In this document: in pieces, positions 4,554 to 63,394 of the stretch
How positions within the stretch are numbered: position 1 is the first letter of the stretch
Layout of the letters: every line of letters starts with the position of its first letter
Source: Lachnospiraceae bacterium
Lineage (GTDB): Bacteria; Bacillota; Clostridia; Lachnospirales; Lachnospiraceae
DNA: 64,000 nucleotides
Assembly (NCBI GenBank): GCA_051880495.1
Contig: JBJEOB010000051.1
Coordinates: 1,507 to 65,506 of the forward strand
Direction: 5' to 3'
Notes under the pieces: model-generated
Told to the model about the DNA's origin: nothing
Database searches by the model: none
What the model saw: the letters and a program-made list of their open reading frames with translations, nothing else
Made by a program: the position numbers and the translations under genes

Positions 4554-4664
4554 TTATCACATTTTATGAGGGTATTTAATCATGATTATCACATTTTATG
4601 AGGATATTTAAGCATTATTATCACATTTTATGAGAATAATATTCGTACTCATAAAATAGTCACA
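4554..4664. repeat. Three direct copies of TTATCACATTTTATGAG at an exact 32-bp period, plus one inverted partial copy
   Basis: The copies are at 4554-4570, 4586-4602 and 4618-4634. Units 1 and 2 share about 27/32 nt. An inverted CTCATAAAATAGTCACA lies at 4648-4664, so copy 3 and the inverted copy form TTTATGAG-N13-CTCATAAA. Confidence 0.85.
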
Positions 4665-5175: not shown

Positions 5176-5757
5176 TCAGCAGACATTGCGCACGTCACTT
5201 TCCACGATATTAAATCGCATAAATTCAGGTATAGCATTTGCCAATGCCTTTTCTTTTATACTTTCATCTCCTGTCGCTGCATATGATACTACAACGCCTG
5301 CCGGAAAATACGGCTTTTCAAGTTTCTGGGAACGAATATCGTTATAATTAGTGCTAATTGGAAGACCATTTATTCTGGACAGATAATCAATCATCGCCAA
5401 CAAATAAAAGGCTTCTCTATACCAACTGCGTTCATAAAGTTAACGTATCTCATCCGCCTCAAGTGTTTCAATGATGAAATCAATGTCGCCCATATCTTTT
5501 ACATGGTGGCATGTATTACTCTTAAATGTCTCAAAAGAACATCTATAATCCACCTTTTCTATCTCTTTATTCTCCAGTATAGAATCAACCGTCACACCAA
5601 GGACCTTAGCTATCTTATATAAAGTTCCGGCTGCGCATTTATCAAGATCAGCTTTTCCGCTACAGATATCTGTAATGGTAGTCATTGCTACGCCGCTTTC
5701 TTTGCTCAAGCGGTATCTTGACATATTTGCTTTTTCAAGTAAGTCATTTACAATCAT
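5176..5757 (-). pseudogene. XRE-family HTH protein with C-terminal domain, interrupted by an in-frame TAA
   Basis: ORFs 5440-5757 and 5176-5403 lie in the same frame (582 nt, a multiple of 3). Read-through gives ...EADEIR*LYERSWYREAFYLLAMIDYLSRINGLP..., with the stop at 5440-5442. A TTGACA-N17-TATATT promoter lies upstream. Confidence 0.65.
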
Positions 5758-5906
5758 CAGCTTTCCCTCCTTTAATTATAATATATCGGTCAACCGAACT
5801 AATGTCAATAATATATTATATCCAGGATTGGAAAAACTATCCGTAATGTGAAATTTTAAATTCCAGTTTTTTACCCCATCCACGAGCTAAAATCCAATTA
5901 TTTATA

Positions 5907-7148
5907 TTATAAAATCCTTCCAAGTTCCCTCCTGATTGCCTCCACCTGTTTTATCGCCTGCCGTATCTTCTTCTGTGCCCTTCCTATCTGCAAATGCACA
6001 AGGCAATCCATAAAATCACTTTCGACCCATAAATCAAAAGCTGATGCCAGACTTTTATAATTTAACTGTACAGTTTTGTTTCCTAACAAATCCTGTAATT
6101 CAATATTCATATTTTGCAAGGCATTCTGTGCAATCTGCAATTCACTGTCGGCATCCGAAAGTGATGAATATTTCCACAATGATGTAAGAAATCCCTTGTT
6201 CATCATATTTATGAAGCTTACATTACTGCTGTCATACATTGCTTCCTGTGCATTATATAAGCACTGCAATGCATAATCAGCAGCCTGGGTTGCAGATTGA
6301 ATTTTCCACATTAATTCATCTTTTGTATCTTCTTCATTTTCCGGTTCCTCTTCATATTCTTCACGCATTTCCTCCGGCAGTTTTAATTTACACATATTGG
6401 CTGCTTCAATAATTACATTATCGTCAATATTTCCATACAGTTCTTCCAAACTGTCTTCATTTAGCAATGAATTTGATGCAAGCACAGCTTTCCTTGTTGT
6501 TTGTGCATCACATAATACAGATATCTCTAACAAATTATCTACGCCAAACGTCACACCATTAAGAACTGCTCTTTGAATGAACCGAGATGCTTCATACCTG
6601 TTTTTACCAAACAACACATTTACAACCTCTATTACTTCGTCCTCATTTCCGAAATCACTTAAAGCACGTGAACGGGTGCTGGCATAGCCGCTATCCCAAT
6701 TTTCATAATTATTGTAGAAACTGCTCCAGCTAATAGGTGATGTAACATCTGTACATAGTTTTTCCTCATATTTACCTGCAATATCTCCCGGTGCAGATAT
6801 TTGATATTTCTTTGCTATATCAATAATCAGCTCATCATCAATGCACCCGTACATATCTTCCAAATCTGTCGCAGTCAGCTTATCTGCCGATTGATATAAT
6901 GCATTTTTAAAGCCTTCTTCACTGCATGAATCACATATTTCCACAAGATTCTCCCCGGAAAATTTTACTCCCTGCTGCAATGCCCTGTTCAACAGTCTTG
7001 TTGCACCTTTCTTATCCTCAAAGCCAATAATATTAAGCACATCAACTATCTCATCCGGGACACCCATATCTTCAAGTGAACCTATCTTATTTACAATAGT
7101 GCTTACTGCCCAATAATTTGATTTTTCATAAAATTCATCCCAAGTCAT
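5907..7148 (-). CDS. Hypothetical protein with a tandem-duplicated ~125-aa domain and a helical C-terminal domain
   Basis: The internal repeat is clear: TWDEFYEKSNYW...LEDMYGCIDDELIIDIA versus SWSSFYNNYENW...LEELYGNIDDNVIIEAA. I recognised no family. Confidence 0.65.
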   Translation of the reverse strand: MTWDEFYEKSNYWAVSTIVNKIGSLEDMGVPDEIVDVLNIIGFEDKKGATRLLNRALQQGVKFSGENLVEICDSCSEEGFKNALYQSADKLTATDLEDMYGCIDDELIIDIAKKYQISAPGDIAGKYEEKLCTDVTSPISWSSFYNNYENWDSGYASTRSRALSDFGNEDEVIEVVNVLFGKNRYEASRFIQRAVLNGVTFGVDNLLEISVLCDAQTTRKAVLASNSLLNEDSLEELYGNIDDNVIIEAANMCKLKLPEEMREEYEEEPENEEDTKDELMWKIQSATQAADYALQCLYNAQEAMYDSSNVSFINMMNKGFLTSLWKYSSLSDADSELQIAQNALQNMNIELQDLLGNKTVQLNYKSLASAFDLWVESDFMDCLVHLQIGRAQKKIRQAIKQVEAIRRELGRIL

Positions 7149-18435: not shown

Positions 18436-19479
18436 CTAATTTTCCATCTTGTACATTACATGGATATCCTCAGGTCCGAATTTGAGTCCCACCTCGAGTC
18501 CTACCTCAAAATAATCCGTTGTATGTATAAGATAATCACGGTACTTTGTTTTTACTACGATTTCATAGTGTACACCCTTAAAGACGATTGATGTAACAGT
18601 ACCTGTAAGCTTTGCTTCACCCGGTTTTACTATATCAATGTCCTCAGGACGAAGTACAACCTCAACTTCCTCGTTATCCTTGAAGCCTTTGTCCACACAT
18701 TCAAAATCACAGTCATCAAAATGTACAAGACAGTCACGTATCATTATAGCTTCAATAATGTTGGATTCACCGATAAAGCTTGCAACAAAACGGTTTTCCG
18801 GCTCATTGTAAATGTCTACCGGTGTTCCTATCTGCTGTATAATTCCCTCATTCATAACAACGACCGTGTCAGACATTGAAAGTGCTTCTTCCTGGTCATG
18901 CGTTACAAAAACAAACGTAATTCCGACTTCCTTCTGAATCTTTTTTAATTCACCCTGCATTTCCTTACGAAGCTTGGCATCAAGTGCACCGAGCGGTTCA
19001 TCCAAAAGAAGAACCTTAGGCTCATTTACAAGCGCCCTTGCAATGGCAACTCTCTGCTGCTGTCCGCCCGAAAGAAGTGTAACATCTCTCTTGTCAAAGC
19101 CCTCAAGACCAACAAGCTTTAACACCCTGCTTACTTTCTGGTCTATTATGCTTTTGTCAACCTTTTTGATGTTAAGTCCGAAAGCCACATTGTCATGTAC
19201 ATTTAAAAACGGGAACAGTGCATACTTCTGAAACACTGTGTTAACCTCACGCTTATATGGCGGAAGCTTGGATATCTCAATACCGTTAAACAGCACCTGC
19301 CCCTGACTCGGCTCATCAAAACCTGCTATGATTCTAAGGGTAGTAGTCTTTCCGCATCCGCTTGGTCCGAGAAGTGTCAGAAACTCATTTTCATAAATAT
19401 TTAAGTCAATTCCTTTAAGTACCTGCTGCTCACCAAAATTCTTGGTAAGACCTTTCAATTCAATAATCTTGTTTCCCAT
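18436..19479 (-). CDS. potA: Spermidine/putrescine ABC transporter ATP-binding protein
   Basis: Walker A is GPSGCGKTT, the ABC signature is LSGGQQQR and Walker B is LLLDEP. A C-terminal TOBE-like domain is present. Confidence 0.9.
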
Positions 19480-22142: not shown

Positions 22143-22544
22143 TTATCTCATGCCTCTTGTAACATCATTTACATTATTGTTGTTGTTTGTGTCTGTGATA
22201 TCATTTCCGATATCTTCAATTCCGTTGCCGATGTCTGTTGCGATTTCCTCAATCACACCTTCTGAGTGACCGTTTGTATTTGTTCCATTAGTACCTGTTC
22301 CGTTAGTACCTGTTCCGTTAGTACCTGTTCCGTTAGTACCGTTTGTGCCATTTGTGTTTGTTGTATTGTTCTGTGTAGCACCGGTAGTCGAATTGTTCTG
22401 TCCGGCGCCATTGTTCATTTCTGTTGACGGCTGCTGGATTCCCTGTGTTGAATTGTTGTTTCCGTTATTTGCCGAACCACAGCCTGTCATTACTGCAAGG
22501 CACATAACAGCCATAATAAATAATACACTTAATCTCTTTTTCAT
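22143..22544 (-). CDS. Low-complexity (Asn/Gly/Thr-rich) lipoprotein
   Basis: The signal peptide and lipobox are MKKRLSVLFIMAVMCLAVMTGCGS. The start ATG 22544 follows AAAGGAGA. The protein contains GTNGT repeats. Confidence 0.7.
   Translation of the reverse strand: MKKRLSVLFIMAVMCLAVMTGCGSANNGNNNSTQGIQQPSTEMNNGAGQNNSTTGATQNNTTNTNGTNGTNGTGTNGTGTNGTGTNGTNTNGHSEGVIEEIATDIGNGIEDIGNDITDTNNNNNVNDVTRGMR
22281..22340. repeat. Four tandem 15-nt units (TGTTCC[A/G]TTAGTACC) inside the lipoprotein gene
   Basis: The repeats were read directly from the sequence. They are in-frame and encode the (GTNGT)n tract. Confidence 0.9.
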
Positions 22545-50933: not shown

Positions 50934-51821
50934 ATGAGTGAATATGTAATCAGCTGCTGCTCTACAGCAGATTTAACCGAAGAACATTTTAGAGAAAGAA
51001 AAATATCATATATTTGTTTTCACTATGAGTTAGATGGTAAACAGTACTTGGATGATCTTGGTAAGTCCATGCCATTCGACAAGTTCTATGAAGCAATGGT
51101 AAACGGTGCCGACACCAAGACATCCCAGATTAACTCCGAAGAATTCATAGAATACTTTGAGACGTTCCTTAAGGATGGCAAAGATATCCTTCATTTGACC
51201 TTGTCCTCAGGCATTTCAGGTGTTGTCAATTCCGCAAGAATTGCTGCCGAAGAGCTTGCCGAGAAATATCCTGACCGTAGGATAATCATTATTGATTCTC
51301 TTGCCGCATCATCGGGTTATGGTCTTTTAATGGATAAACTTGCCGATTTGCGTGATGAAGGAATGAGTCTTGATGAACTTGCCGCATGGGCTGAGGCAAA
51401 CAAATTAAAGCTTCACCACTGGTTCTTCTCCTCAGACCTTACATTCTTCATAAAGGGCGGAAGAATTTCAAAGACAGCCGGTTTTGTCGGCGGTGTTTTA
51501 AACATTTGTCCGCTGCTTAACGTAGATAATCTCGGACGTCTTATTCCAAGATTTAAGATTCGTACAAAAAAGAAGGTTATCAAGGCTATAGTTGACAAGA
51601 TGGAGGAATATGCTGAGGGAGGACTTGATTATTCCGGTAAATGTTACATTTCGCAGTCAGCCTGCTACGAGGATGCAAGAGCTGTTGCAGACCTGGTTGA
51701 AGAAAGATTTCCAAAGCTTAACGGAAAGGTCGTTATAAACAGCATCGGAACTACCATCGGTAGTCATACAGGTCCGGGAACAGTTGCATTGTTCTTCTGG
51801 GGAAGCGAAAGAATTAATTAA
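50934..51821 (+). CDS. DegV-family fatty-acid-binding protein (paralog 1)
   Basis: DegV signatures are present (TSQINSEEF, LSSGISG, IIDSLAAS, GGRISK, GSHTGPG). Confidence 0.85.
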   Translation: MSEYVISCCSTADLTEEHFRERKISYICFHYELDGKQYLDDLGKSMPFDKFYEAMVNGADTKTSQINSEEFIEYFETFLKDGKDILHLTLSSGISGVVNSARIAAEELAEKYPDRRIIIIDSLAASSGYGLLMDKLADLRDEGMSLDELAAWAEANKLKLHHWFFSSDLTFFIKGGRISKTAGFVGGVLNICPLLNVDNLGRLIPRFKIRTKKKVIKAIVDKMEEYAEGGLDYSGKCYISQSACYEDARAVADLVEERFPKLNGKVVINSIGTTIGSHTGPGTVALFFWGSERIN

Positions 51822-51828
51822 CAAGAAT

Positions 51829-52042
51829 CGGGTGTCTAAAGCCGAATAATGACTTTTTAATTGGCTAAATGCACAAATAAAGTTGTTTTCATTCCATTGC
51901 GCTAAGCGTTCCGATGAGCCTCTTCTGTGTTCAGCAAAGACTTCCACAATTTTTAGAGTCTCATCTCCACAGCGCAAAAGTCATTTAAACAATCTTTATT
52001 TGTGCATTTTCCCATTCAAATTTCCTAATAGGCTTTTGCTCG
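51829..52042 (+). repeat. Palindromic repeat element, copy A (core 51867-52010)
   Basis: The core is about 93% identical to the reverse complement of 62229-62334, apart from a ~40-nt apical insertion at 51920-51959. The internal inverted repeats are AAATGCACAAATAAAGTTGTT and AACAATCTTTATTTGTGCATTT. Confidence 0.8.
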
Positions 52043-52059
52043 TATTATGAAATGTAGAC

Positions 52060-52095
52060 TGCGGCGCCTTCAAAGACTAAAAAAGAGGCGCCGCA
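52060..52095. terminator. GC-rich hairpin between convergent genes
   Basis: TGCGGCGCCT-N16-AGGCGCCGCA forms a perfect 10-bp stem. The T-tracts on both sides are weak. Confidence 0.5.
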
Positions 52096-52134
52096 CTAAT
52101 TTCTTAATGCAACAGCCTCTTTTTATTATCTTTT

Positions 52135-52662
52135 TTAGTTAACTACTGATGAATTATATTCAATTGATGCAATGTTATCACCGTCTAAAATAAAGCAAAG
52201 CTTCATGCCATCCTTAACGTAAGCAATCTGTCCTGCTGTCTCTTCATACTTGTCACCATAAACTGCAATAACATCCGCCTTGGTCTTTGAAATATCAATT
52301 CCTTCTGCAGTCTTAACATTATCATCCTTTAAAATAATTGTTGCAATAAGATCCTTATCGCCATCAGGATATGTGTCGATTTCGTAGCTTGCATAGGTAT
52401 ATAACTTTGCAATACCCTGTGCCGCACAGCTTGGCTCCTCGAAATAGCTTACAGGGTCTCCAAGCTTTGAAACAACCGTGCTTGCATCCATGTCTACGCC
52501 AATTTGGATACCATTTACCTCAAATACATAACCCTTAACACTTTCCTGTGTATTCGGTGCTGATGTCTGTGAATTTGTCGACGTCTGCTTATCCGAACCA
52601 CAGCCGGCTAAAAGTGCCACACAAATCATTCCGGCTACAGCCAGACTTTTTCTCATTTTCAT
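52135..52662 (-). CDS. Lipoprotein of unknown function (last gene of the dlt-like operon)
   Basis: The lipobox is LLAGCGS and the RBS is AAAGGAGAG. It lies 17 nt downstream of the SGNH-like gene. Confidence 0.65.
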   Translation of the reverse strand: MKMRKSLAVAGMICVALLAGCGSDKQTSTNSQTSAPNTQESVKGYVFEVNGIQIGVDMDASTVVSKLGDPVSYFEEPSCAAQGIAKLYTYASYEIDTYPDGDKDLIATIILKDDNVKTAEGIDISKTKADVIAVYGDKYEETAGQIAYVKDGMKLCFILDGDNIASIEYNSSVVN

Positions 52663-62077: not shown

Positions 62078-62125
62078 TTACAATATTTTGTGTTGTTTTT
62101 TAATTACGAACACGATATCTTGTGT
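62078..62125. promoter_or_regulatory. Two NrdR-box-like palindromes upstream of nrdD
   Basis: TTACAATATTTTGTGT (62078-62093) and ACACGATATCTTGTGT (62110-62125) each match the ACACwATATwTwGTGT consensus at 14/16. Their centres are 32 bp apart. Confidence 0.6.
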
Positions 62126-62126
62126 T

Positions 62127-62154
62127 ATTATAATATATCTTTTATGTCATGTAA
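62127..62154 (-). promoter_or_regulatory. Candidate nrdD promoter TTACAT-N16-TATAAT
   Basis: On the minus strand the -35 is at 62154-62149 and the -10 at 62132-62127. The -10 abuts the distal NrdR box. Confidence 0.5.
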
Positions 62155-62179
62155 AGTGGATTTCAATATGTTTTTAATA

Positions 62180-62383
62180 AAAAAACAACATGGGGTGTCA
62201 AAAGCTCATTATCAAAGACCTGAATGGCAAAATGCACAAATAAAGTTGTTTAAATGACTTTTGCGCTGTGGAGATGAGATGCTCATCGGAACGATTAGCG
62301 CAACGGAATGCAAACAACTTTATTTGCGCATTTTGCCAGGTTATGAAGTTAAAATAAGCTTTTGACACCCCATGTTGTTTTTT
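62180..62383 (-). repeat. Palindromic repeat element, copy B (core 62229-62334) with a perfect 27-bp outer stem
   Basis: The outer arms (62180-62206 and 62357-62383) are perfectly complementary, in the form A6-CAACATGGGGTGTCAAAAGCT. The second stem is 62225-62251 with 62312-62338. The inner stems are TTGCGCT/AGCGCAA and GATGAG/CTCATC. Confidence 0.85.
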
Positions 62384-62384
62384 A

Positions 62385-63257
62385 TTAAATTCGCACCTTA
62401 CCGTAATGTACGAGTGCAAACATGTCCGGACCGGTATGTGCACCGATTATCGGACTCAGCATTGTGATTCTTACAGTAAGATTTGGATGAATTTCTAACA
62501 CCATTTCCTTTAACTTTTGTGCAAATTCTTTACAGTCTGCACAGCAGATATATACAACATCTCCAAGACTTTCATCAAAATTATCATTGAACTGGTCAAT
62601 AATAAACTTAAGTGCAAGCTTATCTCCCCTCTTCTTTGCGATTGTGTCCAGCTTTCCCGCACCATTAATTGTGAGTATAGGCTTTATATTAAGTGCCGTT
62701 CCCATAACCGCTGTTGCAGCCGAAATTCTTCCGCCACGCTTTAAATACATAAGGTCTTCGACTTTAAACCAATAATTAACCTTATTGGCATTTTCGCGAA
62801 GCCATGCTGCATTTTCAGAAAGACTCATTCCATTTTCACGATTAAGACATGCTGACTCTGTCAGAAGTCCCATTCCTCCGGTTGCCCCGAGACTGTCAAC
62901 GACCTCAATATTAACTTCACCATATGATTCTTTAAGATTCTCCACAGCCATAAGTGCTGACTCATAAGTATTGCTGAGACCACTTGACAGTGAAATATAA
63001 ATAATTGATTTTTTCTCCTTAACATATGGTTCAAAAACATCAATATAATGAAAAGGTGTTATCTGGCTTGTTCTTGTTGAGACCGTCTGCCTTAGCTTAT
63101 CGTAATAATTATGCATCATCTCGTCACTCTCAGGAGCCGTACAGTGAAATGTCTCATCCCCAAGCATATATTCCATAGGAACAAATTTCACATTATGTTC
63201 TCTGGCAAAATCCATATCAATATCTATCGATACATCTGCAAATATTTCGTAATCCAT
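62385..63257 (-). CDS. DegV-family fatty-acid-binding protein (paralog 2)
   Basis: DegV signatures are present (TSQITPFHY, LSSGLSN, VVDSLGAT, GGRISA, GAHTGPD). I take the start at ATG 63257 (MDYEIF). Confidence 0.85.
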   Translation of the reverse strand: MDYEIFADVSIDIDMDFAREHNVKFVPMEYMLGDETFHCTAPESDEMMHNYYDKLRQTVSTRTSQITPFHYIDVFEPYVKEKKSIIYISLSSGLSNTYESALMAVENLKESYGEVNIEVVDSLGATGGMGLLTESACLNRENGMSLSENAAWLRENANKVNYWFKVEDLMYLKRGGRISAATAVMGTALNIKPILTINGAGKLDTIAKKRGDKLALKFIIDQFNDNFDESLGDVVYICCADCKEFAQKLKEMVLEIHPNLTVRITMLSPIIGAHTGPDMFALVHYGKVRI

Positions 63258-63394
63258 TCTTTTACTTCCTTTCAAGGATATTTGTTGATTTATCCACATA
63301 TGAGTATTATACTTACAAATATATTTGAATACAATTACCAATAAAATCGTATTTATTGAATATTCAACAAATAATACAAAAATGGGGAATTAAT

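Follow-up and report, generated by a model that had tools for sequence, protein, structure and literature searches.

A probable family of mobile hairpin elements behind two degV genes of a Lachnospiraceae bacterium and its relation to TwoAYGGAY elements

Introduction

A contig of a Lachnospiraceae bacterium (GenBank assembly GCA_051880495.1, contig JBJEOB010000051.1, positions 1,507 to 65,506 of the forward strand; this whole stretch of 64,000 nt is called the window) holds two genes for DegV proteins, degV-1 and degV-2, and directly behind each of them lies a copy of a palindromic element, here named copy A and copy B. The two elements resemble each other far more closely than the two proteins do. 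What keeps noncoding DNA behind distant paralogues so similar? A first-pass annotation, made from the sequence alone, had offered three answers: a functional RNA tied to degV, a recently mobile transposable element of the miniature inverted-repeat type (MITE) with a preference for sites near gene 3' ends, or gene conversion. According to our analysis, both elements very probably belong to one Lachnospiraceae MITE family, apparently undescribed, and their adjacency to degV is incidental. Elements of this kind are ordinary; the added interest of the family lies in a link between its mobile hairpin chassis and the candidate RNA TwoAYGGAY.

Results and discussion

Two copies of one polar palindrome

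The element was present 3' of both degV genes as announced. The plus-strand sequence of copy A from position 51829 reads CGGGTGTCTAAAGCC..., the minus-strand sequence of copy B GGGGTGTCAAAAGC.... The cores (51867-52010 against the reverse complement of 62229-62334) were identical at 100 of 105 positions and differed by a 1-nt indel and a 38-nt gap, the latter being the apical segment, which is found in copy A only. Over the whole elements the identity was 83% (143/173), in comparison to 65.5% for the opposite element orientation, which confirms the relative orientation given by the first-pass annotation. The copies are palindromic yet clearly polar, because their centre is asymmetric. A 22-mer of the arms was matched four times in the window, where shuffled sequences led one to expect 0.00. 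Both upstream reading frames encode DegV paralogues which are, as had been judged by eye, only distantly related (33% protein identity). The distances from the stop codons were reproduced as well: GGGTGTC of copy A begins 8 nt past the degV-1 stop and GGGGTGTC of copy B 14 nt past the degV-2 stop, the palindrome of copy B beginning already 2 nt past it. The proposed architecture of nested stems stood in part. The palindromes are real, but the outer stem of copy A is incomplete: the left terminal repeat is complete (ATC-GGGTGTCTAAAGCC), the right one is cut after CTTTTG at 52038. In copy B the arms are longer than had been described, 31 nt. Owing to the truncated right terminal repeat, the target duplication of copy A is not recoverable. 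The insert of copy B has the ends ACATGGGGTGTC...GACACCCCATGTTGTTTTTTTATT on the minus strand and lacks the apical segment.

A filled and an empty site

A search with DegV-2 gave a protein of 100% identity in a Lachnospiraceae metagenome-assembled genome of NCBI, probably the source of the window, and proteins of 98% identity in other samples. Three conspecific contigs (L022, L023 and L024; DegV-2 98% identical at the protein level, flanks about 96%) were without copy B. They keep the gene order TetR / DegV-2 / NrdD, with a spacer between degV-2 and nrdD of 115 nt versus 322 nt in the window, and BLAST alignments of about 96% identity on both sides of the site stop precisely where the element lies. 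The sequence of the empty site is ...GAATTTAATAAAAAACATATTG... and contains AAAAACA once; the filled site has 200 extra nucleotides (62176-62375) between two AAAAACA. Target-site duplications, for which the first-pass annotation had asked to look, thus flank copy B with 7 bp, the same length as in other genomes. Such a filled/empty polymorphism between conspecific strains reveals recent activity of the family and is usable as a strain marker.

Copy A was also present after degV-1 in a strain of about 96% identity (L031), where it had diverged about as much as its flanks; this strain derives from the same sample as one of the empty copy-B sites. In place of copy A, the degV-1 orthologues of 83% identity possess an ordinary terminator, and behind orthologues of either degV gene at 78-85% identity the element was not found. 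The insertion of copy A is thus old and decayed, that of copy B recent, which explains why the identity between the elements exceeds the identity between the genes.

Copy number and gene context

For a census, an exact 21-mer from the core was scanned over one genome per prokaryotic species, thus the counts are a lower bound. Eighteen loci were obtained, 14 in Lachnospira sp. JBJEME01, three in 'Clostridium sp.' CAMEFI01 and one in Lachnospiraceae JBJEJH01. A profile built from full-length copies recovered all 18 with scores three to four times higher in one orientation, and a scan of metagenomes with a degenerate left-core pattern added only two diverged copies. The left part of copy A was reproduced exactly by an independent Logan contig (L019). 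Searches with the full element gave no match in PLSDB plasmids and phage records, those with the core and terminal-repeat patterns only chance matches in viral contigs.

All copies were intergenic. Several were internally deleted or truncated, a decay pattern typical of mobile repeats. Their neighbours are unrelated housekeeping genes, among others for ValRS, AddA, Amt-PII, a histidine kinase, PBP1, L19, MutL/MiaA and TrpRS; neither a degV nor a transposase gene stood beside a copy at any of the 18 other loci. The copies measured 188-236 nt, with a longest stop-free stretch of 41-69 codons in any frame that varied between copies. With no conserved reading frame and at this length, the element has no coding capacity for a transposase. 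Relative to the genes, 14 copies were in sense and four in antisense orientation, a ratio that fell to 8 / 4 after contexts with convergent genes had been dropped. This bias is not significant and was discarded as a signal; an oriented preference for T-runs as target (see below) can account for what is left of it. The same-sense orientation to degV is real, yet it concerns the two window copies only; the informative copies elsewhere are divided into 8 sense and 4 antisense. The further copies are dispersed among unrelated genes in mixed orientation, and they are not linked to degV.

Two partial or divergent copies of the Lachnospira metagenome-assembled genome (MAG) are recorded here. A 35-nt fragment of the right core and arm (L002, 5699-5733) lies about 20 nt downstream of the gene for RNase P RNA (RF00010, 311 bits; 5753-6117). 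In the copy of L005 (6100-6290) the core is kept, the arms are much shorter and diverged (AATCCTGAGTTGTAAA...), and the apical hairpin is different and longer; this indicates a modular variation around the core.

Ends, target duplications and target preference

Full copies start with G-ATT-N-GGGTGTCAAAAG and end in its reverse complement, and both ends were present in nine full copies. The consensus of the terminal inverted repeat may also be given as G-ATT-N-GGGTGTCAAAAGYCC, the terminal repeat string being GATTNGGGTGTCAAAAG. With the ends set to G-ATT...AAT-C, the flanking 7-mers agreed in 7 of 7 positions in L004, L006, L011, L013, L014 and the element ROS1 of a Roseburia plasmid, in 6 of 7 in L018, and again in 7 of 7 in copy B (AAAAACA). 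A model with 9-bp duplications and the ends ATT...AAT was rejected: it gave 8-9 matches out of nine in six elements and 7 mismatches across seven elements, while the 7-bp model required one mismatch and two changes of terminal bases and fitted copy B too. When the test was made with 9-mers, controls taken from the sequence around the elements virtually never reached an equally good match.

In eight of nine full copies of other genomes, a run of 5-8 T ended 1-3 nt before the left duplication in element orientation. Some of these T-runs follow G+C-rich stems and resemble the terminator of the upstream gene. An oriented target preference of this kind would bring copies to the 3' side of genes, for the most part in the same sense as the gene upstream, and an RNA function is not needed for it. 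Several insertion sites of the Lachnospira MAG share a short hairpin motif, ACAATAGGGAAGTTC...GAACTTTCCCTATTGT, with a T-run on one side and an A-run on the other (L009 2414-2460, L014 7398-7445), and similar 9-mers stand to the left of the copies in L001 and L018; it may be a REP-like or terminator repeat preferred by the MITE as target.

Among the three answers of the first-pass annotation, the mobile MITE with a preference near gene 3' ends is thus the one that agrees with dispersed copies, terminal inverted repeats, 7-bp duplications and the polymorphism of copy B. As mechanism we propose that a transposase encoded elsewhere would bind the two identical ends of the element. It would cut AT-rich intergenic DNA with a stagger of 7 bp, and insertion followed by gap repair would leave the direct repeat of 7 bp. 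The target preferred in the Lachnospira and 'Clostridium' MAGs would be ..ATAG, 1-3 nt after a T-run, by which copies would come to lie just past the terminators of genes and mostly have one orientation. Recently, copy B would have inserted between the degV-2 stop, at 2 nt from it, and the nrdD promoter, and copy A earlier behind degV-1, with a later loss of its right end. The identity of A and B would originate from the recent common descent of an active master copy rather than from selection linked to degV.

Several observations weigh against this interpretation. A search of the window, about 150 kb of flanking loci, a 243-kb Roseburia plasmid, PLSDB plasmids, phage records and viral contigs gave neither a transposase nor an autonomous element whose ends match; the carriers' whole genomes were not scanned. 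Clean duplications at 7-bp spacing were missing in L001, L015 and L017, although a one-base offset gives L015 a 7/8 match by eye, which was not scored. The window copies do not follow a T-run, unlike eight of nine full copies elsewhere, and both of them stand directly behind degV stop codons, which is unlikely under random intergenic insertion. The AT-rich stop-codon contexts of the two insertions are similar (TAATTAACAAGA and TAATAAAAAACA), and a target preference for such contexts may explain the double adjacency to degV, only loosely and from two cases. The conservation of the core, 94% in its left and 98% in its right part, stood above the 85-89% of terminal repeats and arms and the 85-88% of the terminal repeats by themselves, which is unusual for a MITE; the value of the right core is inflated since it contains the 21-mer used for retrieval, the left core is not directly biased. 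Finally, copy B carries an inverted copy of its own flank, which the proposed insertion does not explain.

This flank-inverted stretch of 12 nt was not there before the insertion, as the empty site documents. It carries the palindrome of copy B into the flanking DNA and sets a run of seven T (T7) after the hairpin. Template switching is known for quasi-palindromes, and it is a possible origin here, at the base of the long hairpin during replication. Alternatively, a copy with longer ends may have been inserted beside a similar A-rich sequence, with a subsequent collapse of the tandem repeat. Extensions of the palindrome into the flanks were also seen in L010 (11 nt, around 6560-6680), L001 (5 nt) and the Roseburia element ROS4 (GTTCGG/CCGAAC, L048).

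The partial copies turned out to be truncations and not the ends of a longer element. A solo terminal repeat on the Roseburia plasmid had no partner within 5 kb, and adjacent helix-turn-helix and tyrosine-recombinase genes on that plasmid were not bounded by the repeat.

The coordinates of the features are collected in Table 1.

Table 1. Features of the window and of the Roseburia plasmid discussed in the text
Feature	Position	Strand	Basis and remarks
Copy A of the MITE	51827..52038	+	nhmmer with family profile, 198 bits, E = 1.3e-59
Copy B of the MITE	62176..62375	-	200 nt of inserted DNA; nhmmer 157 bits; empty-site comparison with L022, L023, L024
Apical segment of copy A	51921..51958	+	shortened remnant of the family's apical hairpin; conserved TTCAGCAAAG.CTTC loop; deleted in copy B; alignments
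Terminal inverted repeat of copy B, one arm, with flank-derived extension	62180..62210	.	repeat search; 31 nt, 97% complementary
Terminal inverted repeat of copy B, other arm	62353..62383	.	repeat search; 31 nt, 97% complementary
Target-site duplication AAAAACA of copy B, left copy, 7 bp	62376..62382	-	2 nt past the degV-2 stop; single in the empty site
Target-site duplication AAAAACA of copy B, right copy, 7 bp	62169..62175	-	empty-site comparison
Extra 12 nt TGTTTTTTTATT at the right end of copy B	62176..62187	-	repeats the left flank AATAAAAAACA in inverted form; lacking in the empty site
degV-1	50934..51821	+	Pfam DegV PF02645, E = 8.6e-64; copy A starts 5 nt past the stop codon
degV-2	62385..63341	-	Pfam DegV PF02645, E = 1.7e-60; reading frame listed from a TTG start
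Roseburia plasmid hairpins with TwoAYGGAY	L045 27756-27992; L048 48060-48372, ~18900-19210; L045 25498-25664

Structure and covariation of the hairpin

A full copy of about 230 nt is built up of terminal inverted repeats, a subterminal stretch without complementarity, arms that are complementary to each other (GGCAAAATGCAC...), an asymmetric core and a variable apical hairpin as cap. The conserved asymmetric core has the form TTGCATTCCATTGCGCT..CG.TCCGATGAGCCTC / GAGTCTCATCTCCACAGCGCAAAAGTCATTTAAACAA. Each strand was folded into one long hairpin, with -101 and -115 kcal/mol (z = -13 and -14). In an alignment of 12 full copies 95% of the cells paired, and 20 of 61 pairs exhibited compensatory changes, in comparison to 8.3 +/- 1.7 in shuffles and 2-5 with slid partners. 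Covariation was confined to the terminal repeats and arms; both core helices were invariant and thereby uninformative. Mismatches of the G·T type were as frequent as those of the A·C type (12 vs 13), thus selection on one particular RNA strand is not indicated. We conclude that the pairing of the arms is of importance to the element itself or is kept up by homogenisation of the DNA, the route being inferred, and does not reflect an RNA function for the host.

The Rfam scan suggested by the first-pass annotation yielded no family for the element, neither at gathering nor at E-value thresholds. One sub-threshold match to a microRNA precursor is due to the long hairpin. A hammerhead-like CUGAUGA, an integron attC, a single-strand origin (CS-6 TAGCGT), a dif/Xer site and a small open reading frame (ORF) were discarded on reading of the sequence, the defining motifs being absent or unconserved between copies.

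Relation to the TwoAYGGAY candidate RNA

A 30-nt query of the terminal repeat matched the plasmid of Roseburia sp. 831b (NZ_CP135163.1, 243 kb). The plasmid has a solo terminal repeat, preceded by TTTTTTTGTCATAGG, and long-hairpin elements with the same or a diverged terminal repeat. At the centres of long hairpins it contains four matches to TwoAYGGAY (RF01731) with 71-134 bits, in comparison to a gathering score of 43. Three of these four hairpins were bounded by terminal inverted repeats, either ATTCGGGTGTCAAAAG or the diverged ATTTTAGTGTTAAAAAA, and one of the elements, ROS1, has the perfect 7-bp target duplication mentioned above. The published alignment of TwoAYGGAY includes gut representatives with flanks that end in CCUUUUGACACCCUAAU; its closing stem is often very long, and mobility is unmentioned in the text (Weinberg et al. 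2010, PMC2864571). These CCUUUUGACACCCUAAU flanks carry the same terminal repeat. In our limited literature search, no paper was found that links TwoAYGGAY to a mobile hairpin chassis.

The elements of the window family and those with TwoAYGGAY have in common the terminal repeat ATTCGGGTGTCAAAAG, the subterminal TGGCAAAWTGYACAAA / TTGTRCAWTTTGCCA, the blocks GTGACTTTGCG and CTCATCGGAAC and the shape of a long hairpin. The arms of the window family matched Roseburia elements in nhmmer with E = 2.7e-4 and 1.2e-3. Terminal repeats, arms and 7-bp duplications thus form a shared chassis, and the long closing stem as well as the flanking sequence of TwoAYGGAY in gut Clostridiales are common to the window family. 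The centres differ: in the window family it is one continued hairpin with conserved internal loops, not two hairpins with AYGGAY loops. With the hits on the Roseburia plasmid (71-134 bits) as positive controls, RF01731 was not detected in the window or in L001-L018 at the gathering score of 43, nor at E <= 1 on copy A, L004, L013 and L018, and the AYGGAY-like strings of the window family (AUGGAA, UCGGAA) are located in internal loops and are not invariant. With both defining tests for RF01731 negative, the window family was not assigned to TwoAYGGAY.

In gut Clostridia TwoAYGGAY looks like the core of a MITE. Its function has been unknown since 2010, and the long closing stem appears here as the arms of an element with terminal repeats and flanking duplications. 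The question about TwoAYGGAY can accordingly be recast, RNA gene or core of a mobile hairpin, and with Roseburia sp. 831b there is a cultured carrier. One step further, TwoAYGGAY and the window core would be alternative functional central modules, RNA or DNA, of one MITE superfamily in gut Clostridia, the window core being a second, undescribed type. The cores would then be no mere leftovers of deletion; they would be single-stranded structures which the elements require or of which hosts make use. We regard this as unlikely.

An explanation of narrower scope retains the MITE and adds selection on its centre: the core of the window family would be a functional structured nucleic acid, RNA or single-stranded DNA, a counterpart of TwoAYGGAY and for example a protein-binding module. 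In its favour, conservation is higher in the core than in the arms or terminal repeats of the same copies, the core stays asymmetric while the arms remain complementary, and the corresponding central place of sister elements with homologous ends and arms is taken by an Rfam candidate RNA. By arm homology, the RNA strand modelled in Rfam is the antisense of degV in both window copies, and on this TwoAYGGAY-equivalent strand the conserved unpaired segments AUGGAA, UCGGAA, GUGGAA and GUGGAG recall AYGGAY. However, the YGGA is not strict, several copies having UUC or UAC for UCC at loops 2 and 4, and subfamily 1 is without an apical YGGA; with motifs that vary across copies, the resemblance of the loops would be only a lead of low probability. 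Moreover, no strand asymmetry of wobble pairs was apparent, the orientation of copies is mixed, retrieval by the 21-mer inflates the conservation, helices 3 and 4 never vary and hence give no evidence from covariation, and TwoAYGGAY itself has no known function. Selection on the core in addition to mobility is therefore held to be decidedly improbable.

A proposed RNA function for degV and possible consequences of insertion

A cis-acting structured RNA of the degV transcripts, i.e., a stabiliser in the 3' untranslated region (UTR), a terminator or a regulator selected via degV and transcribed in its sense, has some points in its favour. Both copies lie in the same sense not more than 14 nt from a degV stop, the hairpin is very stable with covarying stems, and a T7 run follows that of copy B. 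The wider comparison speaks against it: conspecific strains with the same degV-2/nrdD synteny manage without copy B, orthologues of both genes at 78-85% identity are without the element, none of the 18 other copies adjoins degV, and the informative ones are oriented 8 to 4. Neither strand is wobble-tolerant (G·T 12, A·C 13), no Rfam family matched, and a terminator consensus scan called neither copy, with the restriction that its loop limit of 3-8 nt excludes hairpins of 200 nt. An RNA tied to degV, as put forward by the first-pass annotation, is thus highly improbable. The conservation behind distant degV paralogues was a false lead and reflects recent transposition.

Gene conversion, local duplication or an assembly artefact, suggested by two inverted copies 10 kb apart, each beside a DegV paralogue, can be set aside, as there is no flank homology beyond the element, the DegV proteins share only 33% identity, the copies differ in age (A occurs in the ~96% strain from a sample with an empty B site), the family is present in independent assemblies of other genera, the Logan contig repeats the left part of copy A, and copy B has an empty site and a 7-bp duplication.

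Under the MITE interpretation any effect on the host would be incidental, caused by a very stable hairpin in the 3' UTRs of degV genes. Copy B has GACACCCCATGTTG followed by T7, and this hairpin with its T-run could stop or reduce read-through from degV-2 into nrdD. Copy A has no T-run; a separate G+C-rich hairpin follows at about 52060-52097 (GCGGCGCCT...AGGCGCCGC), between degV-1 and a convergent ORF of 175 aa (52135-52662). This hairpin is probably the native terminator of both convergent genes, and copy A inserted between it and the degV-1 stop; copy A would then be transcribed within the 3' UTR of degV-1.

Upstream of nrdD on the minus strand, the region 62078-62155 contains a strong promoter-like site, TTTACA-17-TATAAT (11/12 matches), and, at a distance of 32 nt from each other, the palindromes ACACAAGATATCGTGT and ACACAAAATATTGTAA of 16 nt each, which look like a tandem of NrdR boxes. 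The insertion of copy B lies directly upstream of these sites and left all of them intact. The terminal repeat holds a perfect, outward-facing -35 hexamer TTGACA at both ends of every full copy. In copy B, TTGACA and TAAATT at a spacing of 18 nt (62362-62391, plus strand) constitute a predicted promoter-like site directed antisense into the 3' end of degV-2.

Other observations in the window

As listed, the degV-2 ORF encodes 318 aa from a TTG start; close homologues all have 289-290 aa, and the real start is probably an ATG about 28 codons downstream of the listed TTG. Two tandem repeats elsewhere in the window are unrelated to the hairpin element. In the intergenic region 4554-4617, two 32-nt copies of TTATCACATTTTATGAGGGTATTTAATCATGA with 91% identity are adjacent to each other, and at 22270-22344 a 15-nt unit, CCGTTAGTACCTGTT, occurs in four overlapping copies.

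Comparison with known families of small repeats

Correia and ERIC elements are flanked by a duplicated TA. The window family is set apart from the classical MITEs of bacteria by its hosts, its sequence and the length of its duplications. For several classical families a cognate insertion sequence was put forward; none was found for the window family in the sets searched, and a limited literature search for MITEs in Lachnospiraceae or the terminal-repeat string gave nothing relevant. In common with the window family, Correia/NEMIS of Neisseria, ERIC/IRU of enterobacteria as well as RUP and SPRITE of Streptococcus pneumoniae are intergenic and have terminal inverted repeats and target duplications (in part Delihas 2011, PMC3184786). 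They form long stem-loops when transcribed and are often co-transcribed with neighbouring genes; some have outward promoter hexamers or are terminator-like (in part Delihas 2011, PMC3184786).

The Bacillus cereus group has bcr1 and further MITE-like group A repeats, which are likewise small, dispersed and non-autonomous and stand between short direct repeats; where they occur differs between closely related strains, and compensatory changes keep the fold (Delihas 2011, PMC3184786). With about 155 bp, 5-bp direct repeats and a cruciform of two stem-loops, bcr1 is distinct from the window family, which has about 230 nt, 7-bp duplications and a single long hairpin and shares no sequence similarity with it; bcr1 has also been shown to be transcribed. 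In all other respects listed here, i.e., the small size, the non-autonomous and dispersed nature, the flanking direct repeats, the variability between strains and the compensatory changes, the elements behind the two degV genes are like bcr1.

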